Source of the DNA: a virus
Reading direction: 5' to 3' (one strand)
DNA: 64,000 bases
IMG/VR virus record: IMGVR_UViG_3300025141_000040
Coordinates: 1-64,000 of that record
Positions 3,840 to 21,719 of this stretch are shown piece by piece (position 1 is the first letter of the stretch; each line of letters begins with the position of its first letter). A program made the position numbers and the translations under genes. The notes beneath the pieces are model-generated. The model saw only the letters and a list, made by a program, of their open reading frames with translations. It did no database searches and was not told the DNA's origin.

Positions 3840-5036
3840 CTAGTCGTCGTCCGCGCCGTAGGCAACCGTGGCGTCCCCCTCGGTGGCGACGATGATCGTG
3901 TGCTCGGGCACACCGGCCAGCGCCGCCTTGGTGTCCTCCACGGCCACGTCCATATCGGTCCAGTGACCGGGCAGCAGCACGACGACGACCTCCATATCCG
4001 CGAACGCCTCGGCGTCGGGCCACGAAATGTCGCCGTCCGTGAATACGACGCACACCGGGATGGGGGGCTGGCCCAAGTCCTGCCGCCCTTCGTCAATGCG
4101 AACGACCTCCTCGACCGCGCCGGACACGTCGGAGCCTCGGTCACCGATGAACAGGGGCAGCAGTCGCTCCTCTGCGGCCTGGGGACTCCCGTGGACCTCG
4201 GCCACCATGATCTCCTCGCAGGCGGTCGCGGCCCAATCGGAGGCGATGAACAGGACGCGGGCGATGTTCGGGTGGACGAGGAGCATCGCGGCCTCCTTCA
4301 AGGCCACGCCCAAGGACCGCTCGCGCACGCTCGCGGACGTGTCCACGATCAGGGCCACGTCCCACCCCTTCCGGTTCCCCTTGCGGGCGGGCTCCAACAC
4401 CTGCCCCACGGTGCCCCACAACCCGTAGGTCGCGCGTGAGAGGCGCGTCCACGACGGCCGACCACGGCGGGACAGCTTGGTGGTGGCGGCGTCCAGGGAC
4501 ACCCGCAGGATCTCCTCCCACTCGATCTCCGGGGGAGAGAGGACACGGGTGACGAGTCGCGCGGAGGCGTCGTCGTTGTTGCGAGACAGCGGCCCCGCGC
4601 GCAGCTTCTTCAGCTTGGCCTTCGACGCCTCGCGGATCTTCTCTTTCTGCGCCTCGGTCTTGGGGTTCGGGGCCTTCCCCCTGCGCCGGAGGTCACGAAC
4701 AATGTCCGCGATAAACTCGGGCTTCTTGCCCGCCGCGCCGCAGGTGTGCGTCTTGGGCGTCTTGCCGTCGTCGGGCGGGGGCTCGCCACGTCCACCACCG
4801 CCACCACCGGGCTTGGGGGGCTGCGGGGGCTGCGGGGGCTTCTTGCCGTCGTCGGGCGGCGGGGGCGGCGGGGGCTTCTTGTAGACGGGCGGGGGCCGAT
4901 TGGGATCGGGCGGCGGCGGGTTCGGGTCCGGCTTCCCGCCACCCTCCTGCACGGGTCGCAGGCGGGAGTAGGGAGCGGTGACCTGTTCGCCCACTCGGGC
5001 GGCAGAGACAGGGGCAGCAGGGGGTTTGGTTCGCAT
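3840..5036 (-). CDS. von Willebrand factor A (VWA, DUF2201-like) protein with Pro-rich N-terminal linker
   Basis: MIDAS motif D-x-S-x-S (ALIVDTSASV). Follows the metallopeptidase-domain gene, as in MoxR-associated DUF2201 proteins. ATG 5036 has GGAG upstream. Confidence 0.85.
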   Translation of the reverse strand: MRTKPPAAPVSAARVGEQVTAPYSRLRPVQEGGGKPDPNPPPPDPNRPPPVYKKPPPPPPPDDGKKPPQPPQPPKPGGGGGGRGEPPPDDGKTPKTHTCGAAGKKPEFIADIVRDLRRRGKAPNPKTEAQKEKIREASKAKLKKLRAGPLSRNNDDASARLVTRVLSPPEIEWEEILRVSLDAATTKLSRRGRPSWTRLSRATYGLWGTVGQVLEPARKGNRKGWDVALIVDTSASVRERSLGVALKEAAMLLVHPNIARVLFIASDWAATACEEIMVAEVHGSPQAAEERLLPLFIGDRGSDVSGAVEEVVRIDEGRQDLGQPPIPVCVVFTDGDISWPDAEAFADMEVVVVLLPGHWTDMDVAVEDTKAALAGVPEHTIIVATEGDATVAYGADDD

Positions 5037-5068
5037 CGGGGGTTACTCCGGGGTGCCAGTCTGCCCCA

Positions 5069-5096
5069 AGCATAACAACTGTTGTGTAAGAGTCAA
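5069..5096 (-). promoter_or_regulatory. Internal promoter TTGACT-N16-TATGCT upstream of the VWA gene; the spacer holds the palindrome ACAACAGTTGT
   Basis: Minus-strand read is TTGACTCTTACACAACAGTTGTTATGCT, lying in the 67-nt gap between genes 5104.. and ..5036. Confidence 0.5.
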
Positions 5097-5103
5097 GGCG
5101 TTT

Positions 5104-6228
5104 CTACTGCCCGTCCTCAATGTCAGAGAGCCAGGAGTCCACGTCCCAGGCGTCCTCGGCGCGCGGCGCTTCGGGCGTGGGTCGGGTGGTGGGCTCGGGT
5201 GCGTACACGGGCTCGGGCGGGCTCGCGGCCTCCTCTGCCTGCTTCGCCGCGTACTCGATCTTCGCGGCGCGGAGGCGACCGATGATCTCGGCGTCCTCGA
5301 TTGACCGGGACTCCTCCTCGATGCTGTTCGTGACGACGATCTCCACGTCGTCCTGCTCCCCGGTTGCTTCGTTCCAGGCACCGACCGCGACGACGATCCC
5401 CTCCTCGTCTGTCTCCGTGTCCACCACGCGCTGCCCCACGCTGTAGCCCTTCCAGGGCGGCGGGGGCGGCTTCGGCTTGTTCGGGTCCGGCTCCTCCTGC
5501 TCCTGGGTGAAGGGGTAGTAGTGCTCGGCGGTCAGGTTCCACGGCTGCGGCGGGTCCAGATCCTTGTCGGGGAACAGGAACCACTGAGGCATCGACACCG
5601 ACTCCTCGGGCCAGTCGTTCGTGGGGTACTTCGCGTCCTCCTGCCAGCCTTCCCATTCCTGGCGGGCGAGCCGCATCGCCTCCGTGTGGACCTCGGCCTT
5701 CGGGGAGGAGCGGAACCGCCAGTCCCGTTCGACCTCGGACACTTTCAGCACGGCCAGCTTCGCCAGGATCGGGTTGATCGGGACGATGTTCACCAGGGTC
5801 GAATTGATCTCGCAGTCGCCAGCGCAATTCCACCGGAAACCGTCCACGATCTGCGGGGGCGAGAGCTTGGACAGCACGCCCCTCTGGTACTCGCGCTCGC
5901 GCGGGAAGTGCTTGTAGAAGACGTGCAGGGACTCATGCAGGAACGTGATCCCAAACTCCCACAGCCCCATCCGGCCCTCGTACCGCGCGAAGAACATGGG
6001 GTTGTAGAGGAGGTACATATCCTCGGTCACCGCGAGGGTCGAGATCCGCTCCGTCTGGATCGGGGCGAACGCTCGCAGGAACACGCCCGTCCAGGGCAGC
6101 AGGTACTCGGCCCGCTGCCGCGCCGCACGGAAGTTGGCGGTCGCCGCGTCCGCGATCTCCTTGGGGATCGTTGTGGACGCGCGGCCCGCGTAGTCGGCGG
6201 CGGTCGGTCGGGGGGCAACGCTGCTCAT
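5104..6228 (-). CDS. Putative Zn metallopeptidase (DUF2201_N-like, HExxH) with Pro-rich linker and acidic C-terminal region
   Basis: HESLH in FGITFLHESLHVFYKH. GGAGA 7 nt upstream of ATG 6228. Gene context is MoxR ATPase plus VWA. Confidence 0.8.
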   Translation of the reverse strand: MSSVAPRPTAADYAGRASTTIPKEIADAATANFRAARQRAEYLLPWTGVFLRAFAPIQTERISTLAVTEDMYLLYNPMFFARYEGRMGLWEFGITFLHESLHVFYKHFPREREYQRGVLSKLSPPQIVDGFRWNCAGDCEINSTLVNIVPINPILAKLAVLKVSEVERDWRFRSSPKAEVHTEAMRLARQEWEGWQEDAKYPTNDWPEESVSMPQWFLFPDKDLDPPQPWNLTAEHYYPFTQEQEEPDPNKPKPPPPPWKGYSVGQRVVDTETDEEGIVVAVGAWNEATGEQDDVEIVVTNSIEEESRSIEDAEIIGRLRAAKIEYAAKQAEEAASPPEPVYAPEPTTRPTPEAPRAEDAWDVDSWLSDIEDGQ

Positions 6229-6270
6229 GGGGTGTCTCCGATAGGAAGGAACGAACGGGACGACTGTGGC

Positions 6271-6882
6271 TCAGTCAAGGTCAAGGCCCCAATCACCCAG
6301 GTCGTCCAACTCTGCCAGCAGCTTGTCCGCCTCCTCGTCCACCTGTGACAGACCGGGCTTCACGCGCAGCGTGGGTTCGTTCGCTGCCAGCAGAAGCTCG
6401 GTGCAGATCCTTCGCAGGATCTCCTGGGGGTACGGGTCGGGCGCATGGCCCCGGCCCTTCAGCACGCCCGTTGCCACGAAGTCCATCACGGTCGCCTCGG
6501 AGCGCAGGGCGTCCCGCACGTTGCCCGCGAACAGGGTGGACTCGGTGAGCACGTCACGGGCGGTCGGCAGAAACTCGATGCCGCTCTGCTTGAACGCGGC
6601 CTCCAGAAGCTCCGAGGCTTTCGCCTTGCCGCCCTGGACGGACATTGTGAGATCGCGGAACAGGACGCCGTAGGTGCTGTTGACGCGGAACACGAAGATC
6701 ACTTCGACGGGGATGCCGCGACGTGCGCGTGCCGCGAGGAAGGGCCGGGACATTGTGCCGTCCTTCACGGGGAGCGACCCGACACTGGCCCCGGCGAGCG
6801 GGCCTCCCTTGCGGTTGATGCGCCCCGACCCGCGCGTCGTTTCCGCCAGGAGCTTCCCGCCGTCTGCTTCGATGATCTTCAT
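6271..6882 (-). CDS. Hypothetical protein of the MoxR/VWA operon, ending in the acidic motif LDDLGDWGLDLD
   Basis: ATGA overlap with the ATPase stop (6879-6882). 203 aa with coding-like composition. Confidence 0.75.
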   Translation of the reverse strand: MKIIEADGGKLLAETTRGSGRINRKGGPLAGASVGSLPVKDGTMSRPFLAARARRGIPVEVIFVFRVNSTYGVLFRDLTMSVQGGKAKASELLEAAFKQSGIEFLPTARDVLTESTLFAGNVRDALRSEATVMDFVATGVLKGRGHAPDPYPQEILRRICTELLLAANEPTLRVKPGLSQVDEEADKLLAELDDLGDWGLDLD

Positions 6883-8381
6883 CGGTCCTGACCCTGCCTC
6901 GCGCCATGCAAGGCTTCGTCGCGCACCTTCTTGGTCAGGCTGATCAACTCAGCCATGACCAGCCGAATCAGCCCGATGACCTCCTGCCGGTTTCTCGGCG
7001 GCGCGGACCCGATGACGCGCTTCCCGCCGTCGTCGGAGCCCTGCCAATTCTTGTAGCCGAACAGGATGCCCTTCAGCATGGCCGAGTCCAGGGACGACTT
7101 CCCGAACGACTGAAGCGAGGCGCGCATCCCGTTCACCTGGGCCTGCATCTGCGTCAGGGGCAACTCGCGGTAGTAGTCGATGACGCTCTGCAACTGCGCG
7201 CCGCAGACTTCGGCCGGGGGGTTCGCCTTCAAGAACGCAGCCCGCGCCGTCGCGCTGGCGATGTAGTCGGCGGGCAGGACGGTCTGCGCTTCGATGGAGG
7301 CGTTGTGTGCGTTGAACGACGCACACGCCTCGGAGCCGATGGTGCCGCACACGATCTGGTCCGCGAGCTTGATCCGATCCACGTTCTCCACCCCTTCCAG
7401 GGAGAGTACGGCTGCGCGCCCACGCACGGCCAACTCCAAGGAGCGCGGCGACGGCCATGCGTACTGGTCGGTGAACAGGGTCGGCTGATCGACGCCCTTG
7501 GGCGTGCCCCGGTCGAGATCCGGGTTGTTCTTGTAGAACGTGCGGATCTTGGCGGCGGTCTTGGAGTCCGTCATCTTGAACAGGTATTGCCCGCCCTTTG
7601 CAGTGCGGACCCACGACGCCATTGCGTATGCGTACCGGCTGTACTGCCGGTAAAACTCGCCCATGTTCAACTTCGGCCACGCCTGCTTGTCGGCGGCGGT
7701 CGTACTCAGGGCCTCGGTGGCGCTGATCCAGTTGGCCCACTGATCCACGCTCGGCGGCTTCCAGAACAGGTGGATGAAGCGGTTGGCGACCGGCTCGGAG
7801 AGGTTCGACCCACCGGGGGCCATTGACGGCGGGTTCGCAGCGGCGACCACGACGACGTTGGGGGGCAGCGGGAGATCACCGACGACGCGCTCGTGGATCA
7901 CGCGGAGCATCGCGGCCTGCACGTCGTCCTGGGCGGTCGTAAACTCGTCAAAGAACACGGCCGCGCGAGGGCTGGTGGGATCGAGCGGCTTCCCGCCAAG
8001 GGCGCGGGCCTTGGCCTCAATCGCCCAATCCGGGGGCGCGAAGGACAGGACAGGGAACGCACCCTTGTCGGTCTTCTCGGCGGGGAGCGCCTTGTTCCCC
8101 TCGATCTTCATGTACGCGCCGGGAACCGGAATCCCCAGGAAGTCGGACGCACCGCGCACGGACGCGAGGACCGTGATCGGGTCTTCGCCCTTCGGCACGA
8201 ATCCCAGGGCCTTCAGCATCTTGTTGACCTGGGAGGTCTTGCCGACACCGGGCGCACCCCACAGCATGACCGGCAACCCGAGCACGGTCCCCTCGATACC
8301 GGGGGCCTGTAGCGCGGCGGCAACCATGAGCAGGATATTGTTGTTGTCCTTGTTCGACACGGCGAAGGGGGAAGTTGACAT
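6879..8381 (-). CDS. MoxR-like AAA+ ATPase (AAA_5 type)
   Basis: Walker A is GAPGVGKTS and Walker B is AVFFDEFT. Start chosen at ATG 8381 (MSTSPFAV...) with GAGGA upstream. Confidence 0.9.
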   Translation of the reverse strand: MSTSPFAVSNKDNNNILLMVAAALQAPGIEGTVLGLPVMLWGAPGVGKTSQVNKMLKALGFVPKGEDPITVLASVRGASDFLGIPVPGAYMKIEGNKALPAEKTDKGAFPVLSFAPPDWAIEAKARALGGKPLDPTSPRAAVFFDEFTTAQDDVQAAMLRVIHERVVGDLPLPPNVVVVAAANPPSMAPGGSNLSEPVANRFIHLFWKPPSVDQWANWISATEALSTTAADKQAWPKLNMGEFYRQYSRYAYAMASWVRTAKGGQYLFKMTDSKTAAKIRTFYKNNPDLDRGTPKGVDQPTLFTDQYAWPSPRSLELAVRGRAAVLSLEGVENVDRIKLADQIVCGTIGSEACASFNAHNASIEAQTVLPADYIASATARAAFLKANPPAEVCGAQLQSVIDYYRELPLTQMQAQVNGMRASLQSFGKSSLDSAMLKGILFGYKNWQGSDDGGKRVIGSAPPRNRQEVIGLIRLVMAELISLTKKVRDEALHGARQGQDR

Positions 8382-8476
8382 TCTGGTCCTCAATGAGCAG
8401 GGGGGACCAGCACGGCCCCTCTCACGCACGCGAGCGCGTGGGTGACGAAACGCCGTTATCCTACTGCATCCAGCCT

Positions 8477-8507
8477 GCGCGGGGGCACCCGACTTGCGCC
8501 CCCGCGC
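8477..8507 (-). terminator. GC-rich hairpin (10-bp perfect stem GCGCGGGGGC / GCCCCCGCGC) downstream of gene 8523..9608
   Basis: Stem read directly from the sequence. No U-tract follows. Confidence 0.35.
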
Positions 8508-8522
8508 GTGCGCGCGTGTTCC

Positions 8523-9608
8523 CTACGGGTCGTTGGGCTCGACCACGAAGGACACCGCAACCGGCTCCGTCTTGCGCGGCGTGTCGGACAGGCGAACCGT
8601 GCCGTTCGCCAGGAGCGTCAATCCGGTGATGTTCCACTCGCGCATCCACAGGGCGACAAACCCGATCTCATCGCGGACGGTGGCGGTCGGATCGTCGTCG
8701 GTCGGGACCGAAACCGGGGGCGTCCCGAAGTGCGCGGAGTAGGGGGGAAGTGGGAAGCGGGTGGGCTGGACGACGGCCTTGGGCCGGTGGTGCCAGCAAC
8801 TCTCGGCGTCGGCAGCGATCAAGCGGGCACACGGCTTGCCGTCCGTTCGATTCGGGGCCGCGCACCGCTTCCGGGGGGAGGGGGAAGGGGGGAGGTTGGC
8901 AGTACGGGCTGGTTCGTCCGGCAAGGCGAGGTCCACCACGGGCGCAAGCATCCCTGCCTTCAGTGCCTTCAGCGCCAGGAACGCGGCACGCCCCCGCTCC
9001 TGCGTTTCGTCCAGGGTGGGGGAGCCGTGGAAGGCGCGGTCGGCGCGGTCGAGCAGTCCGTACCGGCGTCCCAGGGACGCGGGGTAGCGGTTGACGACGC
9101 GGGTGTCCTTGGTGGTGGCGAAGCGTACCGCCTGCGCGGTGAGTCCGAGGCGCAGCGCAATCTCGCCGGGGAGCAGCGGCCCGTCCGCCAACGCGGCGTA
9201 GCAACGGGCAGCGAGGGTGCCGGAGGCAGGGACGTGCGTACCCCGCGTCTCAGGGACGCCGGGGACCGAGGCCAGGGGGAAGGTGTCCGCCACCTTGGGC
9301 GGCTCCGCTAGGAACCCTCGCGTGCGTAGCTCCTCGATCAGCTTCGTAGTCCCATTGCCCGAGATCAGCGTCCGGCCTTTCTGCTTCGACCACGCGGCGA
9401 GCGTGGGCTGCGACGTGTGGGACGCGCTCGCGGTGCGGTAGAGGATCACGTCCACCGTCACCGGGATCGACGTGGCCGCGCCGCCGAGCATGATTGGCTC
9501 GACCCCGGCTTTCCGCAGGGCAGCGACGAGCCCCTTCGCGTGCGCGGGTTTGGAAACGATCCCGATCCGAAGGGACGGGGGGACGGGGGCAAGGCGCAGA
9601 GCGGACAT
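8523..9608 (-). CDS. Hypothetical protein, DUF2325-like N-domain plus Cys/His cluster; possible regulator
   Basis: ATG 9608 with GGAGGA 5 nt upstream. The N-region IGIVSKP...VDVILYRTASASHTS...GRTLISGNG resembles DUF2325. A C-x12-C-x11-C-x-HH cluster lies in the C-terminal third (around residues 267-295 of 361). Confidence 0.7.
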   Translation of the reverse strand: MSALRLAPVPPSLRIGIVSKPAHAKGLVAALRKAGVEPIMLGGAATSIPVTVDVILYRTASASHTSQPTLAAWSKQKGRTLISGNGTTKLIEELRTRGFLAEPPKVADTFPLASVPGVPETRGTHVPASGTLAARCYAALADGPLLPGEIALRLGLTAQAVRFATTKDTRVVNRYPASLGRRYGLLDRADRAFHGSPTLDETQERGRAAFLALKALKAGMLAPVVDLALPDEPARTANLPPSPSPRKRCAAPNRTDGKPCARLIAADAESCWHHRPKAVVQPTRFPLPPYSAHFGTPPVSVPTDDDPTATVRDEIGFVALWMREWNITGLTLLANGTVRLSDTPRKTEPVAVSFVVEPNDP

Positions 9609-9648
9609 TGGAGTCCTCCGTGGGGTTGACGCATCAGTAAGCTCCGTC

Positions 9649-9677
9649 ACCCTAAGTCACCCTTGCCTAACTGTCAA
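9649..9677 (-). promoter_or_regulatory. Promoter TTGACA-N17-TAGGGT for gene 8523..9608
   Basis: Exact consensus -35 and a TAnnnT -10, about 40 nt upstream of ATG 9608. Confidence 0.5.
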
Positions 9678-9720
9678 GCCAAGCGATTCTATGCGCCTTT
9701 CCGCGCGTCCGCGCGTGCTG

Positions 9721-9770
9721 TTCGATGCCGTTCGATGCCGTTCGATGCCGTTCGATGCCGTTCGGTGCGG
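9721..9770. repeat. Tandem 10-bp repeat (TTCGATGCCG x4 plus degenerate TTCGGTGCGG), iteron/operator-like
   Basis: Four perfect copies. The array lies midway between the divergent promoters at 9649-9677 and 9814-9842. The period equals one helical turn. Confidence 0.8.
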
Positions 9771-9813
9771 CTCCGGGGGCGCACTTCGTTATCAGTATGT
9801 CCGCTTTCCATAT

Positions 9814-9842
9814 TTGCGTATCACAACGAGAGTCGGTAGTAT
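9814..9842 (+). promoter_or_regulatory. Promoter TTGCGT-N17-TAGTAT facing the cysteine desulfurase / giant ORF operon
   Basis: Lies in the only AT-richer stretch (9781-9860) of this intergenic region. Confidence 0.5.
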
Positions 9843-9957
9843 CCCCTCAGTAACTCCCCTCTCCGTGGGTGAGGCACCAGTCAGCCCGTCCGGCCCCGGT
9901 CCCTTCACAGGGTCGGGGTCGAGCCGGTTGTAGAGAGTCCCTTTGGGCTCGCTGCGG

Positions 9958-9963
9958 TAGACT
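9958..9963 (+). promoter_or_regulatory. TAGACT -10 box exactly 7 nt before GTG 9971 (candidate leaderless start)
   Basis: There is no SD in front of GTG 9971. The same TAGACT-N7-start geometry occurs at 18309 and 32921. Confidence 0.4.
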
Positions 9964-9970
9964 TGCGCGC

Positions 9971-11065
9971 GTGAAGCGCGTCTACCTCGATCACAACGCC
10001 ACCGCCCCTCTCCTCGCGTGCGCGCGAGAAGCTATGGCGCGGTGCTGCGATGGGAATCCTGACTCCGACCATGCCGAAGGCCGACGTGCGAAAGCGGCCG
10101 TGGAGGGGGCGCGCAGTCACGTCGCTCGCCTCATTGGTGCAGACCCCGGTGAGATCATCTTCACCAGCGGCGGAACGGAGGCGGACAACATGGCCCTGCT
10201 TGGAGTCGGCGGGACGCCGATGATCTCGGCGGTGGAGCACAAGGCCGTGCTCGTACCCGCGACCGACCTTGACGGGCGCGTCCTCCCGGTGGACAGCCTG
10301 GGGCGGTTGAACCTGGGCGAAGTCGAGCAGGCTGTTCGCAGACACCGCCCTGCCCTGGTCAGCGTCATGCAGGCGAACAACGAGATCGGGAATCTCTACC
10401 CGGTGGGACGCATCGCGCGCATCGCGCACGGCTACGGAGCCCTCTGCCACACCGACGCGGTGAACGCGCTCGGCAAGATCCCCGTCAACGTCCACGCCCT
10501 CGGGGTGGACCTCGCCAGCTTCAGCGCGCACAAGATCGGCGGTCCCAAGGGAGTCGGTGCGCTCTACGTTCGTGCGGGCCTCGACCTCCCGGCCTTGGTA
10601 CGCGGGGGCGGGCAGGAGTCCGGCCACCGGGCAGGGACGCCGAACGTCCCCGGCATCGTGGGCTTCGGTGCCGCCGCCTACTCGATGTGGCGGTTCCTGC
10701 GGCGGGACGGGTCCACCCTGCTCGGGCAGCATCGGGATGCGCTGGAACGCGGCGTCCTCCGGCACGTCCAGGGCTCTCAGGTTGTCGGGAACACGCGCGC
10801 AGGCGGGCGGCTCCCGAACACGACGACCATCGCGTTCGCCGGGGTCAAGCCCACCGACCTCGTACACGCGCTGGACCGACTCGGGGTCGCCGCGTCCTCG
10901 GGCTCGGCCTGCGGCTGCAAGAATCCCGGCCCGTCCCACGTTCTGAAGGCAATCGGCTGCACGGGGGCCGTCCGGTTCTCCTGCGGGCCGGGAACCACGC
11001 ACGGGGCCGTGAGATCCGCCGTGGGCGCAATCAGCGAATCCGTCGAAGGGCTACGCAGTCGATGA
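9971..11065 (+). CDS. Cysteine desulfurase (NifS/IscS family, class V aminotransferase)
   Basis: VYLDHNATAP N-terminus. PLP lysine lies in SFSAHKIGGPKG and the catalytic Cys in ASSGSACG. GC3 is low upstream of GTG 9971, so the 34-codon track extension is rejected. Confidence 0.9.
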   Translation: MKRVYLDHNATAPLLACAREAMARCCDGNPDSDHAEGRRAKAAVEGARSHVARLIGADPGEIIFTSGGTEADNMALLGVGGTPMISAVEHKAVLVPATDLDGRVLPVDSLGRLNLGEVEQAVRRHRPALVSVMQANNEIGNLYPVGRIARIAHGYGALCHTDAVNALGKIPVNVHALGVDLASFSAHKIGGPKGVGALYVRAGLDLPALVRGGGQESGHRAGTPNVPGIVGFGAAAYSMWRFLRRDGSTLLGQHRDALERGVLRHVQGSQVVGNTRAGGRLPNTTTIAFAGVKPTDLVHALDRLGVAASSGSACGCKNPGPSHVLKAIGCTGAVRFSCGPGTTHGAVRSAVGAISESVEGLRSR

Positions 11066-11067
11066 CC
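11040..11067 (+). repeat. 28-nt start-site cassette, copy 1 (CCGTCGAAGGGCTACGCAGTCGATGACC)
   Basis: Contains the nifS-like TGA and the giant-ORF ATG. Confidence 0.9.
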
Positions 11068-14000
11068 GCTTCCCCTCTACGGGTCGAGCATTCGGGCACC
11101 CAGGACTTCCCCGCGTGCCCCGCAGGTTGGACAACGGACGGCTGGCCGTTCTTTGAGGACTACGCCGACGACTGGGACGAGCCCTGGAACCACCCCGGCA
11201 TCTGGCACGTCACGACCGCCGCCGAGGAGGTAGCGCAGGACGGTCGCCTGCTCTCGCGCCGTGAGCTTGCCGCGAAGGGGATCACGACGGCGGGCTTGGG
11301 CGGTGGCACGGCAAACGTCGCCTCCAGCAAGATCAGCGTGACCACGAATCCGCACGCCGCGCAACGGGTCTACCGAACGATGCAGATCGCAGCCCTGGCC
11401 GCACAGAACCGGCTCCCTGCTTGGCGGGTCGCAGCCGAGGCACTGAAGTCCAGCAGGGTTGAGGATCTGCTCTACGAGGTCGCAGAACGTGACACCTACT
11501 TGTGGGAGGCGCAGGGTGACCGTGAGGATGATGCGGCGCGGCTCCGCGACGATCTAGCCAATCTGCTCGACGTTGGCACCGAGGATGCCGTCGCCACGCC
11601 CCAGGAGCTTCGTGCCGCTGCGAACGCGCTGGAACGGACCTTCTACAACGGAGAGGCCAAGTATGGCTTGCTCCAGTCCATCGAGGCTATCGGCACCGAG
11701 GCGCACCAGTACGTCATCGAGTCCAACGAGAGCGCGGTCGCCCCGGTCGGCTTCACGGAATCGTGGTCGAAGTGGGCAAAGGTCAACCCCCGGAACATTC
11801 GCCTCCTCCGGCTCGCCGCGTGCCCCGGTGCGCGCGTGAGGATTGAGCCTTCCGAGTCCGAGCTTCGGTTCGACCCCAAGGATCTGCGTGTCGTCGGCGT
11901 CGAGTCGTTGAAAGGACTCACGAACCTTACAGAAGCCCCCAAGAAGCTACGGCTGCGGAACCCCGCCCGTCGAAGGACTACGAAGTCGATGACCACAACT
12001 ACGCCAACCCCATCGACACTGCCGTCCGACTCGCTGCCGCCGACCAAGCCCCGTGAGATCCTCGCAGCGCACGGGATCGGGGTGGGCGACGTGGTGACAG
12101 CCGTGTTTCGGGGGGCGACCGTCTCCGGTGTTGTAAGGAAGATCAACCCAACGTCGGTCTTCGTTGGACAGCTTCAGTGGCCGGACAGCTACACCAACAA
12201 GCGGTGGGACAAGATTTCGATCCCGCCTCACGACATTGAGGGCATCGAGGCCCCGGACTACGAGGTCGATTTCCTGCGACACGCCCACCACTTCGGGCTG
12301 GCCGCAGGCGACCTGGGGCGGGAGTTTCCGATCCATAACACGACCTTCCGCGTCGTCGGGCTCAACATCGCTCTCAAAGATCCCGTCCTGATTCGTCAGG
12401 TAGGGGGGTCCACCGTCCAAGGCCCTGTCTTTCGTCACGGTGCCGCACAGATCGCGGCGGCGCTTTCAACCATCGACCGTCGAAGGACTACGAAGTCAAT
12501 GACCGACCCAAGACCCGTGCAGTCGTCAAGCGCCCCGCAGATCCCCGCCGAGTCCGACCTCACCTGGGTCGCAGGCAGGCACCGCAGGGGCTACAACCCG
12601 CACTACCCCGTGGATCGGGCCACCCTCCCGAACGGCGGCGAAGTCATGCGGGCAGGCAGCGCGGGTCGCCTCTACCCCCCGTACCAGATCAGCCGGTTCC
12701 CTGGCGTCGAGCGCAGGCGGTTCTCAGAGAGCACGTTCGCGGACGCCTACGCCGCAGCCCTGGCCGCGCAGGCAGCAGCCGCCCCCTCCAAGCCCCTCGC
12801 GGATCTCCCCGCCGATCTCTCGGCCGGTCTGAAGCGCGCGATCAAGGGCGCGTACCCGAAGTCGGCCAAGGAAGCGAAGCTGGTCCTGACGCACCTGGGC
12901 GTTGGCATCATCCCGTTCAAGCAGGGTCGGAAGTTGATGGGCTACGACCTCGCGCTCCCCGAGGGCGCGGGCCTGGGCTTCGACTACTACTCCCCCCGGT
13001 CCTCGCGCTCCCGTGGGATCGACAAGACCGCGCTGTGGGGGCAGGGCTACACGTCCGACCCGGAGGCGGAAGCCGCCCGCCTGATCTTCATGGAGTGGCT
13101 GAAGAACGCCGCCGCCGTGGCCTTGGGCGGCGACGTTGCCGAGAAGCTGGCGCGCAAGGCGCAGGGACTCCCGATGGAGGCCCGGAGCGCCGACCCGGCC
13201 GTGCGGACGTGCGGCGCGTGCTGGCGGGACATAAAGGCGACTGCGACGAAGTTTCAAGGCGGGCGTGACCCCGCAGGGCACCGCCACGGCACCAACCTCT
13301 ACCTCGTAGATCACGGCTACACGATCAAGTGGGGCCGCACGGGATCGTGCCCCGGAGTGGCGACCCTCCCTTGGGAGGAGTCCGACGAAGCCGCACGGTT
13401 GGAGATCACCGCGCTCCTGTCGGTCAGCACCCACGTCACCGCCGAATGGCGGAAGTGGACGGGCTTTGTCGAGCAGTACGACGCCGGGAACACCAAGGGC
13501 CTCCCCGGTATCCCGAAGCGGGGCGACCGCACTTCGCCCTACGGCGTCAAGCCCGTCGAGTACGAGGAGATCATCCTGCGCCCCACGGGCGACACCAAGT
13601 ACGAGTGGCGGGACAAGGCCGCGTATGCCGAGGCCGACGCCCTCCGTTTCCTGCGGGACAAGCTCTGGTCAAAGCACTTCGGGTCCATCCCCTACATGCG
13701 CGCAGCCCTGCGTGAGTGGGAGCCGCAAGCCGCCGACGTGGTTCCGGCCAAGGGTCCGCCCTGGATCAAGGCGTTCCAGCCCGAGGACTTCGCCGGGAAC
13801 CCGTTGGCTGGCGACGACGACCCGAGCGCCCCCGAGCCGGAGCCCGAGCCGGAGCCCGAGCCGACGCCCGAGCCCCTGCCCGCCCCGGCCCCCACGCCTG
13901 CCCCGGCCCCGCCCCCGCCCGAAGGAACCCCGCTCCAACTGCGGCTCGCGGTGCTGTGGCGCGGCGCGAAGCCCCCCGAGAAGATGCCCCGGTGGATCAC

Positions 14001-17000
14001 CAACCTCCGAGGGAAGGGGCCGAAGCGCGCGTTCCGCGATCTGAAGATGGACGTGCTGATGCCCTACGCGGACGCCGTTCAACTGTTCACCCCGGAAGGG
14101 CTGACGGATCTGAGCGACAAGGTGGACGCCCGCATCGCCACCGAAGCTGCGAAGCTCAAATGGGACCGTGGCTACCTCCTGCGCGCCACGGTGTCCGTGC
14201 CGAACCTGATCCACAATGACACCGGACGCAGGCGAGCCCTGTTCACCCGCGACTACTGGCACGACAAGATCAGCGCCGATCTGAAGCGGGGCGGGTGGAT
14301 CGTGGGCCGAACGGCCCTGGGTCGGCCGCTCTACGAGTTTGTGTTGCAGGATCACGCCACGGCCGAGCCCACACCCCCTACACCGCCTGCTCCTGCCCCG
14401 GCAGTCGAGGAGCCCCCCACTATGCCCGCCACCGCCTCGTTCGACTACCCCATCGATCCCACGGAAACGTCCCGCACCGAGGCGTGGTTCCGTGCGTTGT
14501 TCAACGCCTACGACGGGCAGCTTGACCAGCCGTTCCTGGCGACCGCGATGAAGTCGCAGTTTCCGCGCCTGGGGAAGCCGAACGTGCTCGCCACGTTCAC
14601 GCAGCTTCGCGGGTCGAACCAGATCGTGAAGGGTGAGGGAGCCGCGTGGATCTGGCCGGACCTCCTCCCGGCCGCGCAGGACGACAAGCTGCTGGCCGAC
14701 CTGGGCGTGGCGACCGGGGGCGGAAACAACGAAGACCTCGCCGCGCTGGACGTGGATGACCCCGAGCACCCCGAGCTTCCCGAGCTTCCCGAGCCCGTGA
14801 CCCCCGCGCCCTCTGGCCCACGGCCTGCTCCGGCTCCCCCGGATGAAGGCTTGACCGAGCACCCCGACCCGACCGCAGCGCCCGCGCTCCCCATGCCGTT
14901 CACCCCGCTCCCCGGCGTGACGTGGGTGGACCCCGCGCTCTACGGCTGGACGTGGCTGGAAGGGCCGCACAACACCAGCCTGACGCTGCGTCCGTGGGGC
15001 AACGCGCCCGACTCTTTCATGGTGGTCGAATCGCTCGCGGGCGAGGACGTGGGGCAGTCCTACTTCACCAAGAACGGCGTGCAGGGATCGGCCCCTGGTG
15101 GCAAGGCAGCGGCCTACGCTCACATGGAGGAGTTGGCTCGCAGCCTCGCGGCCGTGACCCCCGCGCACACGGGCTCCGCGACCCCGACCCCCGCCCGTCC
15201 GGCCGTGCCCTTCGCCAACAACGAGATACCGGACGTGGTGTCGATGGCGAAGGGAAAAGTGGGCGACGGCTGGCCCTTCCCGATCAGTGCGGACGTGTCC
15301 GGCATCGTCAGCAAGGTCGGGCGCAGGCAATGGCTGGTGAAGCCGATCAAGGAACAACCGTACGAGATCCCACGCATCGGAGGCACCGCCACGGGCGCAA
15401 AGACCGCGAACAGTGCCTCCGATGCGTGGGATCTCGTACAGGAGTTGATCACGCACGGCGGCGTGTGGGCCTCCGGGTGGACGCCCCAGGTGTCCGGCGA
15501 TCCCCACCGTACCGAGTGGCAGAACGCGGCGGGCTCCGAGGACGTGTGGGTCGAGCCCTGGACCGATTCGTGGATCGGGGTGGAAACCGGCACGCCGGGG
15601 TCGCAGTACCCCGACGCCTGGACGGTCGGCCACAACCCTCGCTACCAGACCGACTCCACGACGAAGTGGTACTTCAACGAGAACGGGAAGGGGGTCGCCC
15701 CCGGTTCCATGATGGGCCACAGCAACGGGGACCGCAGCACGACGCCGCGCTCCGGTGGCGCGCAAGCCGCCGCCGACTTCCTGATGCAGACGTGGAGGAT
15801 CGCCTGGACGCCCGGTGCGTACCCGCAGCCCGCGCCCCCGACTCCGGCCCCGCCGCAGCCCACGCCGCCGACTCCCGCGAAGCCGGGACGACCGACGACG
15901 CAGGCCGAGCTTCTGCGCCGGATGGTGGTGTTCCTGACGGACACCGCCGACAAGATGGAGGACGGCACCGTCACCGCCGCCCGAATGAAGGGGCTGGAAC
16001 GCCTGCTCGACGGTGCGTGGGACGCGCTGATGAAGCTGCCCCCCGCCGCCCCGCGCAAGGGGAACCGCAGGCGGAACCCCGGCCCCCGCAGGCGGAACCC
16101 GTCGTCGCCCGAGGGCGAGCCGTGGCAATGGGACGCCCGCCGCCGCGTGGAGGCCGCGTTCAAGGCGAAGTACGGAGTGGACCCGCTGCCCGCAGGTGAC
16201 CCCCGGATCAGCCAGTACACCGCGCCCTGGTTCCCGGTGTTCCACCTTCCGCGCCACCTGTTCCGGGCGCAGTATTACGACAAGCCCCTGTCGCGGACCC
16301 TCGGCAAGCTGTCGCTCCACAAGGAGGACTTGCCCGACAAGAGCTTCCTGCTCACCGCCGTCTTCCGGTCGCCATTCCCGGCGTTCCCTCCCGGTCGGCT
16401 GATCACGCTCGACGGTCGCGTGGGGTTCATCCAGAGGCAACCGGAGATCCGGCACTCCACCCACTACGGCAAGGACGGCAAGGGCGTGGCCGTCGAGACA
16501 TTCGACAACTTCTATCACGTCGGTTGGGACACGGGCATCGACTACAAGGTGCCGCCCGAGGCCCTGGCCGGGGCGACCTTGGTGCCCCTCGCGGACGCCT
16601 CCGACTTCGTTCCGGGCAAGGTGGTCTGGTCATTTGGAGGCCCGCAGCGCATCGAGCGCGTGAACACGACCCGGTACAACGGCTTGAAGAACGTGGAGAC
16701 TCCCGACCCCGAGGACTGGACGCTCTACTTCGTCGGCGGCGGTAGCTCCCTGGTTGGCCGTGATGGGCCGTCGAAGGTTCCTGCCGGAACCACCGTCACG
16801 CTGCTCCCCTCAAACGACCAGATCGTGCGCGTGATCTCCGGCCCCCACACCGGGTTGGTCGGCATCGTGAAGGCGGCGTCCGCCGCCTCCCTGACGCTCC
16901 GACTGCGCCCCTCGTACAGCCTGCGCCCGGTGCTCTCCCAGGTGGACGTGACCCTGACGGCCCCGGCGAACGGCGACTGGTGGACCGTGGTGGAACCGCT

Positions 17001-17256
17001 CACCGCCACCGAGTACCCGGAGTTGCACGCGGAAGTCCTGTCATGGACGAACGTGTACGAGAACGGCCAGTGGTTCATCGGGACCGTGACGGACAACGAC
17101 GCCGAGGGCAGCGACGACGACCGTGCGTACCGGGACGCGCACCTGATCGTGGAGGCTGCGGACGACCGCCGCCGCCGCTGGTTGGTGCAGCGGGTGTACC
17201 CGATCACCCGAGCCGAGTACAACACGACGCTGGCCTACATCGACCAGCACGGCTGA
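11062..17256 (+). CDS. Giant multidomain ORFan (2064 aa) with Pro/Ala/Thr linkers, translationally coupled to the cysteine desulfurase
   Basis: ATG 11062 overlaps the nifS-like TGA (ATGA). Open frame of 6.2 kb. PEPEPEPEPTPEP and PAPAP linkers separate the modules. I recognised no catalytic motif. Confidence 0.85.
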   Translation: MTASPLRVEHSGTQDFPACPAGWTTDGWPFFEDYADDWDEPWNHPGIWHVTTAAEEVAQDGRLLSRRELAAKGITTAGLGGGTANVASSKISVTTNPHAAQRVYRTMQIAALAAQNRLPAWRVAAEALKSSRVEDLLYEVAERDTYLWEAQGDREDDAARLRDDLANLLDVGTEDAVATPQELRAAANALERTFYNGEAKYGLLQSIEAIGTEAHQYVIESNESAVAPVGFTESWSKWAKVNPRNIRLLRLAACPGARVRIEPSESELRFDPKDLRVVGVESLKGLTNLTEAPKKLRLRNPARRRTTKSMTTTTPTPSTLPSDSLPPTKPREILAAHGIGVGDVVTAVFRGATVSGVVRKINPTSVFVGQLQWPDSYTNKRWDKISIPPHDIEGIEAPDYEVDFLRHAHHFGLAAGDLGREFPIHNTTFRVVGLNIALKDPVLIRQVGGSTVQGPVFRHGAAQIAAALSTIDRRRTTKSMTDPRPVQSSSAPQIPAESDLTWVAGRHRRGYNPHYPVDRATLPNGGEVMRAGSAGRLYPPYQISRFPGVERRRFSESTFADAYAAALAAQAAAAPSKPLADLPADLSAGLKRAIKGAYPKSAKEAKLVLTHLGVGIIPFKQGRKLMGYDLALPEGAGLGFDYYSPRSSRSRGIDKTALWGQGYTSDPEAEAARLIFMEWLKNAAAVALGGDVAEKLARKAQGLPMEARSADPAVRTCGACWRDIKATATKFQGGRDPAGHRHGTNLYLVDHGYTIKWGRTGSCPGVATLPWEESDEAARLEITALLSVSTHVTAEWRKWTGFVEQYDAGNTKGLPGIPKRGDRTSPYGVKPVEYEEIILRPTGDTKYEWRDKAAYAEADALRFLRDKLWSKHFGSIPYMRAALREWEPQAADVVPAKGPPWIKAFQPEDFAGNPLAGDDDPSAPEPEPEPEPEPTPEPLPAPAPTPAPAPPPPEGTPLQLRLAVLWRGAKPPEKMPRWITNLRGKGPKRAFRDLKMDVLMPYADAVQLFTPEGLTDLSDKVDARIATEAAKLKWDRGYLLRATVSVPNLIHNDTGRRRALFTRDYWHDKISADLKRGGWIVGRTALGRPLYEFVLQDHATAEPTPPTPPAPAPAVEEPPTMPATASFDYPIDPTETSRTEAWFRALFNAYDGQLDQPFLATAMKSQFPRLGKPNVLATFTQLRGSNQIVKGEGAAWIWPDLLPAAQDDKLLADLGVATGGGNNEDLAALDVDDPEHPELPELPEPVTPAPSGPRPAPAPPDEGLTEHPDPTAAPALPMPFTPLPGVTWVDPALYGWTWLEGPHNTSLTLRPWGNAPDSFMVVESLAGEDVGQSYFTKNGVQGSAPGGKAAAYAHMEELARSLAAVTPAHTGSATPTPARPAVPFANNEIPDVVSMAKGKVGDGWPFPISADVSGIVSKVGRRQWLVKPIKEQPYEIPRIGGTATGAKTANSASDAWDLVQELITHGGVWASGWTPQVSGDPHRTEWQNAAGSEDVWVEPWTDSWIGVETGTPGSQYPDAWTVGHNPRYQTDSTTKWYFNENGKGVAPGSMMGHSNGDRSTTPRSGGAQAAADFLMQTWRIAWTPGAYPQPAPPTPAPPQPTPPTPAKPGRPTTQAELLRRMVVFLTDTADKMEDGTVTAARMKGLERLLDGAWDALMKLPPAAPRKGNRRRNPGPRRRNPSSPEGEPWQWDARRRVEAAFKAKYGVDPLPAGDPRISQYTAPWFPVFHLPRHLFRAQYYDKPLSRTLGKLSLHKEDLPDKSFLLTAVFRSPFPAFPPGRLITLDGRVGFIQRQPEIRHSTHYGKDGKGVAVETFDNFYHVGWDTGIDYKVPPEALAGATLVPLADASDFVPGKVVWSFGGPQRIERVNTTRYNGLKNVETPDPEDWTLYFVGGGSSLVGRDGPSKVPAGTTVTLLPSNDQIVRVISGPHTGLVGIVKAASAASLTLRLRPSYSLRPVLSQVDVTLTAPANGDWWTVVEPLTATEYPELHAEVLSWTNVYENGQWFIGTVTDNDAEGSDDDRAYRDAHLIVEAADDRRRRWLVQRVYPITRAEYNTTLAYIDQHG
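11967..11994 (+). repeat. 28-nt start-site cassette, copy 2 (CCGTCGAAGGACTACGAAGTCGATGACC)
   Basis: In frame inside the giant ORF (RRRTTKSMT). Confidence 0.9.
12477..12504 (+). repeat. 28-nt start-site cassette, copy 3 (CCGTCGAAGGACTACGAAGTCAATGACC)
   Basis: In frame inside the giant ORF (RRRTTKSMT). Confidence 0.9.
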
Positions 17257-17259
17257 TCC

Positions 17260-17667
17260 TCAGACCCGGCGCAGGATCTCCGGCAGGCCCCGATGGAGTC
17301 GGTCGGAGGTCAACGCCTCCTCCGGCGTGATCCAGGCCCACCCGGAGGACTCCCACTGGATCGTGGGAATCCGCACCTGGGGCACGGTCACGATGACGGT
17401 GGTGTAGCAGGACTCCCGGCCGGACCTCTTGGTTCGGCAGCGCCGCATCCGGCCGACGATCTGCCCCTCCCACGCCAGGAGATCGGCTCCGGCCTCCTCG
17501 CGGGCTTCCCGCAGGGCCGCGTCCACGGGTGTCTCGCCCGGATCGACCCGGCCTCCCGGCAGGTTCCACAGTCCAGGGTGCTTGACCCGTTCGGAACGCT
17601 GAAGCAGGAGGACTTGCCTCCCAGGCGCAACGAACAGGACGCCTGCGACCTCGCGGGGCCGCGTCAC
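17260..17667 (-). CDS. Nudix hydrolase
   Basis: Complete Nudix box: GRVDPGE-TPVDAAL-REAREEAGA (Gx5Ex7REUxEExGU). Confidence 0.9.
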   Translation of the reverse strand: MTRPREVAGVLFVAPGRQVLLLQRSERVKHPGLWNLPGGRVDPGETPVDAALREAREEAGADLLAWEGQIVGRMRRCRTKRSGRESCYTTVIVTVPQVRIPTIQWESSGWAWITPEEALTSDRLHRGLPEILRRV

Positions 17668-17709
17668 GCGCTCTTTCTGGTCACCGCGAACCTCGCAGTC
17701 TCAGAGTGC

Positions 17710-18309
17710 TCACGACGCGGGCGGCACGGGTTTCACGGGTGCGGGGCGCTTCGCCTTCCGGCGTCGTCCCATCTTGGGGCGCTGCCCGAGCGCGGCGACC
17801 CCCGAGGCCGGGACGACCCATCCGGGGAGCACGCGGTTCCGCAGGGGGCCGAGAGGGACAAGGATCGTCCAGCCTTCGACGGCGAGGAGCCCGGTACGGT
17901 CGGGGTGCGGGTCGAAGATCAGCCGTCCGTTGCTGTAGACGACCGCGTGGTAGTAGCCGCGCCCCGACTTGCCCGAGGCGATCCAGAACAGCGGCACGCC
18001 GCCCTTGCGGAGCATGACACCGGGCGGGTGCGGCCCGTCCCCGCTGATCGCGGTCAGGCCGAAGTCCTCCGCGAGCCAGTCGAGGATCGCCGGGTCGCGC
18101 AGCGGGAGCGCATCGGTGGCGCAGACCGCATCCTTGCCCTGGCAGCGGTTCCGGGGGTCCGGCACCGTGTCGAGGTCAACGCCGAGAACGGTTGCGTAGG
18201 CCGCTTCCAGGCAGTTGCCCCAGGGGAAGCCCAAGCGGTCCTGCGTCTGCGCTCCCATGAGCAGCAGGCGTTCGGCAAACTCGCGGGTGATGTGGCGCTT
18301 GCGTGGCAC
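17710..18309 (-). CDS. Putative papain-like (C39-like) cysteine peptidase with basic C-tail
   Basis: Candidate triad: GNCLEAA (Cys), GYYHAVVY (His), FDPHPD (Asp). GTG 18309 has no SD but has TAGACT exactly 7 nt upstream. Confidence 0.6.
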   Translation of the reverse strand: MPRKRHITREFAERLLLMGAQTQDRLGFPWGNCLEAAYATVLGVDLDTVPDPRNRCQGKDAVCATDALPLRDPAILDWLAEDFGLTAISGDGPHPPGVMLRKGGVPLFWIASGKSGRGYYHAVVYSNGRLIFDPHPDRTGLLAVEGWTILVPLGPLRNRVLPGWVVPASGVAALGQRPKMGRRRKAKRPAPVKPVPPAS

Positions 18310-18929: not shown

Positions 18930-19868
18930 TCAACCTCCGAACCGACACTCCTGGGCGAAGTCACAGGACTTGCACCAGTAGCCGGACTTGGGGGTCCAGT
19001 CACGCGCGGACTGCGCGGCCCGGTCCCACAGATTGATCATGCCCGCTGTCATCCAGATCGTGCGAGGGAAGTCTTCGACCATGTGAGGCGCAGCGGCCGG
19101 ACGCTCGCGCTTGAACAGCAGCTTGTCCTTGGTCTGGAAGAAATTGAGGATCACGCCTTGAAACTCGTCGGGCCAGAAGTGCCGCCCGATGTGTTCCATG
19201 CCGTGCATCTGCCCCGTCATGCCGTAGTTGAGGTTGGTGGACCTCCACCACTTCTGCGTCGTCTTGTGGTCGGGAATCCAGACGCCCCGGTGGTCGCGGA
19301 TCACAAGGTCCAGGCGGGACGTGAACAGGGCCGACCCTGGCGTAGCGGCGTCCACGACTCGCGGCACCCCGGCTGCGTCGGGGAGGACGCCGATGCGAAA
19401 CTCCTGCTCGACCGCGAGCGGCTTCCACGTTTCGTTGGCGTGCTCGGCCGTGTAGACCCGGAACCGCTGGTACACGTCAGCGGCCCACTCCAACATATCC
19501 GGCCGGGTGAGGCCGGACTCATGGGCGATCTTCGACACGTCCGCCTGCGTCAGATCCCGAGGGTTCTTGTTGTGGCCGGGGTCCAGCTTCCACAGGTACA
19601 GGAGCGCGAGGAGCGCGTGCGCGAACGTCCCCACGGCGGGGACGTTGTTACCGGGGGGCCGGGGGGCCGGAGTGTCCGCGTAGTGCAGCCGGTTCTCGTA
19701 GGCAAACTTCCGGGGGCACTCCAAGAAGCACCCGTAGTAGGACCACCCGCGCGTGGAGCGCGTGGACTGCCCGGTGGTTCCCGCCTGCCCCGGCTTCCCG
19801 ATCTGGACGACCGGGGGAGGCGGCAGCGTGGGCGCAGCCAGGGCGAAGTCGAAGGTCAAGTCGGCCAC
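18930..19868 (-). CDS. PD-(D/E)xK nuclease, Cas4/RecB-like, with 4-Cys (Fe-S type) cluster
   Basis: N-terminal CPRKFAY. RLDLVIRD...IPDHKT forms the D...D-x-K motif. C-terminal CKSCDFAQEC. Confidence 0.8.
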   Translation of the reverse strand: MADLTFDFALAAPTLPPPPVVQIGKPGQAGTTGQSTRSTRGWSYYGCFLECPRKFAYENRLHYADTPAPRPPGNNVPAVGTFAHALLALLYLWKLDPGHNKNPRDLTQADVSKIAHESGLTRPDMLEWAADVYQRFRVYTAEHANETWKPLAVEQEFRIGVLPDAAGVPRVVDAATPGSALFTSRLDLVIRDHRGVWIPDHKTTQKWWRSTNLNYGMTGQMHGMEHIGRHFWPDEFQGVILNFFQTKDKLLFKRERPAAAPHMVEDFPRTIWMTAGMINLWDRAAQSARDWTPKSGYWCKSCDFAQECRFGG

Positions 19869-21302: not shown

Positions 21303-21719
21303 TTACCCGGCATCGTCCTGACTCGGTTCGTCGTTCGCGCTCGCGGCGTCCTCTGCGGCCAGGGCCTCGCCCGCTTCGTGGTCCTCTCCGAGCAGCATGG
21401 CGAACGCCGGGTGCGCCTGTACGGCTTCCATGCCCGTACCGAGCAGGGTGGACAACTCCGCGTCGGCCAGCCGCCGCTTGAATACCAAGCCCTCGGTCCT
21501 GCCCTCGGGGTTGGCCTCGCGCAACTGCTTCGCGTGCGTGGCGACCTCTGCGACGGCCTGCCGCAGCGTGATCCGCTTCTGGTAGGGGCGCACGTCAAGC
21601 GCATTCCCCGACAGCCGGAGGACGACGAGCCAGTACGTCTTTTCCAAGTCGATGTTGGGGGCGGGACGGCGGGAGCACGCGGAGCGCGTGCGGGAGTGGT
21701 TCGGGGGGCGGCGGGTCAT
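21303..21719 (-). CDS. Hypothetical protein (138 aa), acidic C-tail
   Basis: ATGA overlap with the Dam stop (21716-21719). Coding-like composition. Confidence 0.7.
   Translation of the reverse strand: MTRRPPNHSRTRSACSRRPAPNIDLEKTYWLVVLRLSGNALDVRPYQKRITLRQAVAEVATHAKQLREANPEGRTEGLVFKRRLADAELSTLLGTGMEAVQAHPAFAMLLGEDHEAGEALAAEDAASANDEPSQDDAG

Follow-up and report, generated by a model that had tools for sequence, protein, structure and literature searches.

A divergent NifS/IscS-class cysteine desulfurase and an adjoining mosaic giant open reading frame in an uncultured high-GC phage-like element

A cysteine desulfurase gene (9971..11065) and the giant open reading frame (ORF) that directly follows it (11062..17256) were analysed in a 64,000-nt stretch of DNA, positions 1 to 64,000 of the IMG/VR record IMGVR_UViG_3300025141_000040 (hereafter the window); features are on the plus strand unless stated otherwise. 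The account favoured here, with slightly better than even confidence, is that a functional desulfurase was captured by a phage-like element as an auxiliary supplier of sulfur to host pathways, and that the giant ORF behind it is a mosaic rather than its partner. The catalytic residues of the desulfurase are intact, the gene is under purifying selection, its synteny is conserved, and the giant ORF is mosaic with no conserved cysteine in it. Sulfur supply for the iron-sulfur (Fe-S) or thio-cofactor pathways of the host is the probable role of the enzyme, and we infer which molecules accept the sulfur and what the phage gains. As regards sulfur transfer, the outcome is mainly a correction: a phage desulfurase beside a huge unknown gene is not evidence for a new sulfur-relay system.

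The desulfurase gene encodes 364 amino acids from a GTG start at 9971, and the resulting N-terminus, MKRVYLDHNATAP, aligns with residue 1 of NifS/IscS. The later ATG at 10034, which was the pick of gene callers elsewhere, was rejected as the start, as it would cut off conserved residues. A class-V aminotransferase domain (pyridoxal phosphate (PLP) fold type I) spans the full length of the protein (Pfam Aminotran_5, PF00266, residues 4-344, E = 1.3e-64), and matches were obtained with PHROG 12787 (E = 1.5e-88) and with the desulfurases of the PDB (up to E = 1.7e-65). The top NCBIfam model was NifS (TIGR03402) at 320 bits, under its cut-off of 530.75, and the IscS (TIGR02006) and DndA (TIGR03235, E = 8.5e-71) models reached 224.8 and 239.1 bits against cut-offs of 643.2 and 480, respectively. 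By these model scores, the enzyme is assigned to the group-I class as the equivalog of neither NifS nor IscS.

The PLP-lysine motif SAHKIGGPKG (K188; 10523..10552) was aligned with SAHKMYGPKG of solved desulfurases, and the catalytic cysteine loop SSGSACG (C314; 10895..10915) with the corresponding loop of solved and cellular enzymes. As H90, D162, K188, C314 and R335 are all conserved in that comparison, with K188 and C314 invariant throughout alignment A3, the desulfurase appears competent for catalysis. The ratio of nonsynonymous to synonymous substitution rates (dN/dS) was 0.15 against the closer of two related contigs (L001; 84% DNA identity); the gene is under strong purifying selection and is being kept. 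The first-pass annotation of this DNA, which described a NifS/IscS-type desulfurase with PLP-lysine and catalytic-cysteine motifs and judged it active in appearance, is borne out on both counts, so far as conserved residues and the substitution ratio can tell.

The enzyme resembles the group-I desulfurases NifS, IscS and NFS1, including the members of PHROG 12787, in its class-V aminotransferase fold, its PLP-lysine, its cysteine in a long mobile loop and its His, Asp and Arg residues. Unlike them, it is at most 49% identical to the closest cellular NifS proteins found and lies under every NCBIfam equivalog cut-off, and its clade is marked by three short specific deletions, by additional cysteines within the catalytic loop (ACGCKNPG) and by a chain that ends right after the '...LR' motif, from which cellular proteins run on for 5-25 residues. 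The active-site counterparts in IscS, which we take to be His104, Asp180, Gln183 and Arg354, include one further difference: the position of Gln183, beside the PLP-binding Asp, is occupied by Asn in all three phage sequences (TDAVNALG versus TDAVQS). The two phage relatives are 89% (L001) and 77% identical to the window enzyme, and no relative from an isolated phage exceeded 40% identity; most of the 56 GenBank 'phage' matches were unannotated fragments resembling host DNA. Viral cysteine desulfurases or Fe-S genes have already been reported as auxiliary genes in metagenome surveys (PMC12911398, PMC7785012). Hence the earlier description of the gene as unusual phage cargo holds in that such genes are uncommon and lack close relatives in isolated phages, but not in the sense of novelty, viral copies being on record in those surveys and in PHROG 12787. 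The desulfurase is a divergent new member of an already known kind of viral auxiliary gene, and this well-defined, selectively kept viral NifS-like clade with its truncated docking tail could be used for studying how viral desulfurases plug into the Fe-S machinery of the host.

The arrangement of the region 9971-17256 was repeated at 99.9-100% identity in four independent assemblies (L005-L008) and is therefore not an assembly artefact. Beyond these, two related contigs were available, L001 (ENA, 49 kb) and a contig of JGI 3300072015 (52 kb), the latter being compared through its gene list only. The same neighbourhood is kept in both, namely a divergent upstream block, the desulfurase and then a large ORF, and convergent Nudix and Cas4-like PD-(D/E)XK genes.

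The giant ORF encodes 2,064 aa, and its third-position GC stays at 0.73-0.94 over the full length in one frame, so it was treated as one coding frame. No match to it was obtained in Pfam, NCBIfam, PHROGs, PADLOC or PDB sequences, save a sub-threshold KOW motif, nor among GenBank phages and plasmids in nucleotide and protein searches. An exhaustive HMMER search with residues 1-1200 returned 168 homologues, more than 100 of them for module M1, about 20 for module C and one for module D. The label 'ORFan' that had been given to the gene thus fits its silence in the domain and structure databases and fails for this part of the protein. The proteins encoded by the large ORFs of the window, L001 and the JGI contig are 2,064, 1,602 and 1,158 aa long, respectively, and have only subsets of modules in common. 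Since the relatives share only such subsets, and since the ends of M1 and C homologues coincide with the module ends, the giant ORF is judged to be mosaic, an in-frame fusion of about ten modules whose content changes fast between close relatives. The locus is a clear natural case of independent phage genes fused in frame.

From the N-terminus, module M1 (aa 1-309; 11062..11988) is followed by M2 (aa 310-479; 11989..12498), for which no homologue was found and which is missing from L001 and from the large protein of the JGI relative (P0002). Modules C0 and C (aa 480-936; 12499..13869) are 78% identical to their L001 counterparts and have stand-alone homologues, and they contain the cluster C717-x2-C720...H...C763 (13210..13350). 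A Pro/Glu/Ala-rich linker (13810..13926) leads to module D (aa 956-1093; 13927..14340), which is also found in L001 and has a homologue in P0172. Modules E and F (aa 1121-1375; 14422..15186), which start with Met and are free of cysteine, are common to all three related sequences. Module G (aa 1380-1475; 15199..15486) is confined to the window lineage, being missing from L001, while P0002 has other sequence in its place, and the next modules, H and I (aa 1476-1664; 15487..16053), are again Cys-free and shared by all three (alignment A1). A basic linker, RKGNRRRNPGPRRRNPSS (16054..16113), precedes module J (aa 1685-2064; 16114..17253), which bears the weak KOW-like motif and is present in L001 and missing from P0002. 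M2, C0, E and F each open with Met, as is expected of formerly independent genes.

The large ORF of L001 is without the first 479 residues (M1 and M2) and without module G, and at its Pro/Glu linker an additional module, about 90 aa long, is present. P0002 has M1 at 67% identity, then unrelated sequence, and then E, F, H and I at 38% identity, and is without modules C, D and J; a 'kinase-like' assignment of its middle module (IGKGTFATVY) found no support from Pfam or PDB sequence searches. The dN/dS values of the giant-ORF modules (0.37-0.55) were much more relaxed than the 0.15 of the desulfurase. Linkers of the R-[KR]-R-N-P type recur at module borders of the relatives (window 16054-16113, P0002 296-310 and 515-535, L001 11026-11076) and could be protease sites or nucleic-acid-binding patches.

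The concept and architecture of polyvalent proteins of phages and conjugative elements have been described by Iyer, Burroughs, Anand, de Souza & Aravind (2017, PMC5512222). Like them, the giant ORF strings many unrelated modules together via low-complexity linkers, with an architecture that shifts quickly among relatives, and its M1 occurs in P0266 as well, a protein of 3,858 aa with five ART-PolyVal stretches and KTSC, GNAT and NUDIX domains (M1 at 1774-1998, profile match, E = 5e-48). Unlike them, MuF, ART-PolyVal, metallopeptidase, methylase-helicase and ParB domains are undetectable in the giant ORF, which sits among replication-type genes rather than beside recognised virion genes. It is a new variation on the polyvalent-protein theme, made from uncharacterised module families.

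Most homologues of M1 stand alone, as proteins of 250-300 aa with ends that match those of the module, and in the family alignment (A4) R66, S92, E265 and E267 are invariant and H49-V-T51 is near-invariant. M1 was also found inside P0213 (with ParB_N, PARP-like and GNAT domains) and P0231 (with GNAT domains). The AlphaFold2 (AF2) model of M1 (mean per-residue confidence, pLDDT, 88.6; predicted template-modelling score, pTM, 0.86) has a beta core that is split and, inserted into it, a helical part of about 140 residues. No significant fold match was obtained by Foldseek against PDB and BFVD: the PDB match of highest probability was a local one, to DarT1 with NAD+ (8baq; probability 0.44, E = 2.7, 49 columns, root-mean-square deviation 2.4), and the best BFVD match, a MuF-domain protein (probability 0.80, E = 0.15), was not significant. 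Only noise came from a profile search of the PDB with the M1 alignment. As a lead only, the split beta core, H-x-T strand, conserved Ser strand and E-x-E strand of the predicted model would be in keeping with the ADP-ribosyltransferase (ART) folds of DarT and ART-PolyVal, whereas its helical insert is without counterpart there. A relationship to ART-PolyVal was rejected after hhalign with the ART-PolyVal segment gave a probability of 1%, and none of the Pfam ART models matched the 40 M1 family members compared, so that an ART-like activity of M1 would be only a lead from the model.

Stand-alone homologues of module C are 300-430 aa long and have an invariant C-x2-C...H...C site (alignment A5), which, judging from the residues, probably binds metal. 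Its AF2 model (pLDDT 80) had no fold match in the PDB by Foldseek. The structure prediction that had been advised as a check thus gave confident models for M1 and C and no significant fold match. On the metagenomic contigs L010, L011 and L015, the homologues of M1 and C take the form of ordinary small genes within densely packed arrays; elsewhere among phages these two modules occur mostly as genes of their own or within other giant effector proteins. M1 and C are two sizeable families with confident predicted folds unlike any solved and with invariant residues that look catalytic or metal-binding, and the presence of M1 in phage polyvalent proteins makes it a candidate anti-host effector. On the 3.7-kb contig L014, the module-C homologue switches frame midway (1187-1217; two tblastn segments) and the ORF is split there by the gene caller, which reflects either an assembly error or a real frameshift.

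The TGA of the desulfurase (11063-11065) overlaps the ATG of the giant ORF at 11062 in 'cgATGAcc', and the same 4-nt stop/start overlap is present in L001. This fusion of the desulfurase stop to an ORF of 6.2 kb ending at 17256 had been correctly described in the first-pass annotation; the reading attached to it, that the coupling implies stoichiometric co-expression with a sulfur partner of a new type, is not sustained. An NTGA overlap with the start of the next gene was found at no fewer than 8 of the approximately 52 gene ends in the window; as such overlaps are common in the genome, the ATGA is no sign of a specific partnership and is the usual compact gene junction of this genome. The giant protein has five cysteines only (19, 254, 717, 720 and 763), none of them in the last 1,300 residues, i.e. 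after residue 763, and C717, C720 and C763 are the only ones outside M1. The part common to all three related sequences (aa 1142-1664) has zero cysteines, and therefore no conserved persulfide acceptor is available in it. The module that abuts the desulfurase is M1 in the window and the JGI relative and C0/C in L001, and no class-V aminotransferase gene was seen near M1 or C homologues in the six contexts examined; on L014, a different large ORF begins with module C, and no desulfurase lies upstream of it. A stoichiometric sulfur relay is unlikely because the shared part is Cys-free, the abutting module varies, the homologues occur in contexts without a desulfurase and the NTGA junction is generic. 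Going by the distribution of cysteines, the remaining route for such a relay would be the Cys site of module C, which is missing from P0002.

A dedicated partnership, in which the desulfurase acts physically with the giant protein, for example by loading sulfur or an Fe-S cluster on the module C site or by being regulated by a conserved module, with the ATGA serving co-assembly, is accordingly regarded as improbable. The gene pair is kept in the three related sequences and the invariant three-Cys-plus-His site stands directly after the desulfurase in L001, both of which speak for it; P0002 nevertheless keeps the pair without module C, the modules common to all three are Cys-free, C and M1 homologues elsewhere, L014 included, do without a desulfurase neighbour, and NTGA junctions are generic in the genome of the window.

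By the mechanism proposed for the favoured account, a small high-GC phage-like lineage would have captured a bacterial NifS/IscS-class desulfurase and would keep it functional as the first gene of a rightward two-gene unit. Sulfur from L-cysteine would be held as an enzyme persulfide on C314 and passed to host acceptors of the IscU/SufU/TusA/ThiI type, by which the supply of Fe-S clusters or thio-cofactors may be raised during infection, e.g. for the Cas4-like Fe-S nuclease of the phage. Viral desulfurase and Fe-S genes in metagenomes have likewise been read as auxiliary genes for the time of infection (PMC12911398, PMC7785012). The Cas4-like PD-(D/E)XK nuclease (18930..19868, minus strand; PDDEXK_1, E = 2e-16), syntenic in all relatives, has Cys47 and Cys51 in its N-terminal part and C-x2-C-x5-C in its C-terminal part, so the four-cysteine nuclease noted at first pass is real, and no other Fe-S client is predicted in the window. 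The mini-proteins with cysteine clusters that had been suggested as further clients are indeed present (small CxxC proteins at 1413-1787, 27615-27968, 35177-35668 and 36326-36946, with no Pfam match), but in appearance they are the usual zinc-ribbon proteins of phages and not dedicated Fe-S clients.

Several points weigh against this account. With the C-terminal tail missing and Asn in place of Gln183, the desulfurase may not dock on the standard host acceptors, and the same two features would allow it to dock in a non-standard way or to put its chemistry to another use. Neither a scaffold gene nor an acceptor gene was seen in the window; of the genome, roughly 106 kb in length, about 41 kb lie beyond the window. 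The adjacency of desulfurase and large ORF is kept in all three related sequences, and some functional link between the two is possible. The viral nature of the element is itself deduced, and the label 'polyvalent-type' is drawn from how the giant ORF is built and from a single domain family that it shares with such proteins; of the hallmark polyvalent domains, none was detected in it.

Other destinations for the sulfur were weighed with scans for partner genes, in which Pfam was run on the other ORFs of the window and PADLOC on ten neighbouring proteins; no Dnd/Ssp, PAPS-reductase, ThiI, TusA, IscU, SufE or radical-SAM protein was found by them. It is highly improbable that the enzyme is DndA/SspA-like and feeds a Dnd/Ssp system of the host or of the unseen part of the genome, by which phage DNA would be marked with phosphorothioate and would evade phosphorothioate-dependent restriction. 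The enzyme class is the same, the PADLOC models of SspA (1.5e-99) and DndA (1.9e-96) and the NCBIfam DndA model matched strongly, and solved DndA and SspA structures are among the matches of the desulfurase. These models, however, match any group-I desulfurase; NifS outscores DndA (320 versus 239 bits), which is far under its cut-off; and, unlike at Dnd and Ssp loci, DndB-E and SspB-D were not found by PADLOC in the ten neighbours, and no PAPS-reductase or SMC-like domain was detected by Pfam in the window. Thiolation of tRNA, in which the phage would boost 2-thiouridine or 4-thiouridine on host tRNAs and so tune the decoding or frameshifting of its own genes, is given an equally small chance. 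The sulfur for tRNA thiolation comes from group-I desulfurases (IscS), and the desulfurase is intact, which would suit this role; no tRNA gene was found in the window, however, and no ThiI, MnmA or TusA-like domain was detected in the ORFs scanned.

A role outside sulfur trafficking, i.e. cysteine depletion, production of sulfide or persulfide, or selenocysteine lyase activity directed against host redox or defence, is likewise very improbable. The truncated tail, the clade deletions and the change of Gln183 to Asn suggest altered partner docking, and selenocysteine lyases can be detected as relatives; nevertheless, an ordinary desulfurase has just this catalytic loop and this substrate-binding Arg, and no positive evidence for this role was obtained.

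A repeat of 27-28 nt, CGTCGAAGG(A/G)CTACG(A/C)AGTC(G/A)ATGACC, occurs in three copies in the window, with 0 expected by chance. The first copy (11041..11067) comprises the last desulfurase codons, the ATGA overlap and ACC, and the second (11968..11994) and the third (12478..12504) lie at the M1/M2 and the M2/C0 (M2/M3) borders, respectively, both with an in-frame ATG ACC end. The start-to-start spacings of 927 and 510 nt are multiples of three, and every copy therefore gives an in-frame ATG ACC. DNA homology between the window and L001 breaks at 11028 and restarts at 12540, so the three copies bound exactly the block that is missing from L001; and because the end of the L001 desulfurase is a diverged homologue of the repeat, copies 2 and 3 look like duplicates of the desulfurase/ORF junction. 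The repeated junctions mark the latest additions to the ORF. Modules would be gained or lost by recombination between copies with frame and overlap preserved; between copies 1 and 3, it would restore an arrangement like that of L001, still in frame and still with the ATGA overlap. No exact copy of the repeat was found in IMG/VR or GTDB genomes, and a common RNA structure at the junctions was sought and rejected, none being shared. That the repeat is a functional cassette junction, at which recombination stacks or drops effector modules in frame behind the desulfurase and at which the copies may start translation to give nested effectors, is put forward as a doubtful proposal.

Production of the giant ORF as nested products, with copies 2 and 3 as internal starts (M1-to-J, M2-to-J and M3-to-J isoforms, or mostly separate pieces), is compatible with the favoured account and is rated as less likely than not. 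The three near-identical 27-nt copies share the same Shine-Dalgarno (SD)-like AAGGA, 11-nt spacer and ATG ACC, copy 1 being the true initiation region of the ORF; L001 retains AAGGA-N10-ATG before module C0 despite diverged flanking DNA; modules M2, C0, E and F open with Met; and at two of the three junctions the folding is less stable than that of shuffled controls. On the other hand, an SD-like 5-mer precedes 3 of 24 internal ATGs against about 2 by chance, i.e. without enrichment, the 11-nt spacing exceeds the 5-9 nt of other genes, and start 1 may need termination-reinitiation, a mechanism that is not open to copies 2 and 3. Module E starts at an in-frame ATG, residue 1121 (window 14401-14424), with GAGGAG 9 nt before it; L001 likewise has Met there, and this ATG is another possible internal start.

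The source of the window is a rare, uncultured, high-GC phage-like element (G+C of 66-70% along the entire length). It is called a phage because replication-type genes are present, namely those for ribonucleotide reductase, DUF3987 primase, SNF2 helicase, D12 methylase, Nudix and PD-(D/E)XK proteins; the primase is 23-32% identical to the primases of a few actinophages and one cyanophage. No capsid, portal, terminase or other virion gene was recognised in the window by Pfam, PHROGs and PDB sequence searches, so that 'virus-borne', as the desulfurase had been called, follows from the replication-type genes and finds no virion gene at its side. A block of about 22 kb (38582-60772) contains large ORFs (563, 848, 586, 592, 1,105 aa and others) with no Pfam or PHROGs match, and the three checked against PDB sequences had none there either; if these are virion genes, they are too diverged for recognition and the element may represent an undescribed virus lineage.

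No similar locus was found among the phages of GenBank, the plasmids of PLSDB or the records of IMG/VR; in IMG/VR, zero relatives were returned whether the query was the desulfurase, M1, the shared core or the M1 alignment, and a GTDB genome scan with M1 gave no match. The sole return of the metagenome scan was L009 (Ga0080013_1004786, 13 kb), of which nt 1-169, at the contig end, are 99.4% identical to window 15869-16037 and the remainder is unlike the window; a chimeric assembly is the probable explanation and a recombinant the alternative. Over 8400-17800 no Rfam match was obtained, and the output of a scan for sigma-70 promoters and terminators was uninformative.

The upstream block (3840..8429, minus strand), which is transcribed away from the desulfurase and keeps its synteny in every relative, encodes a MoxR-type AAA_5 ATPase (6879-8429), a 203-aa ORF and two DUF2201-like proteins (putative metallopeptidases). 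MoxR/VWA pairs are cofactor-insertion chaperones in other systems, and by analogy a link between this block and the desulfurase is conceivable. Between the Nudix gene and the next conserved gene, a Muramidase (PF11860) gene is found in L001 (16239-17015) and a different ORF of 199 aa in the window (17710-18309), a further case of local gene replacement. The window encodes a D12 adenine methylase of 377 aa at 21716-22849, and the syntenic slot of the JGI contig is occupied by a fusion of N6_N4_Mtase and MethyltransfD12 of 968 aa. A neighbouring pair of paralogous genes lies at 43524-44291 and 44360-45118, the products of which have very acidic N-terminal D runs, then an Arg/Lys-rich part and then a conserved C-terminal domain (QFDFVAED...FGDRIVFSNP...GLKRGTTGCGPGAV).

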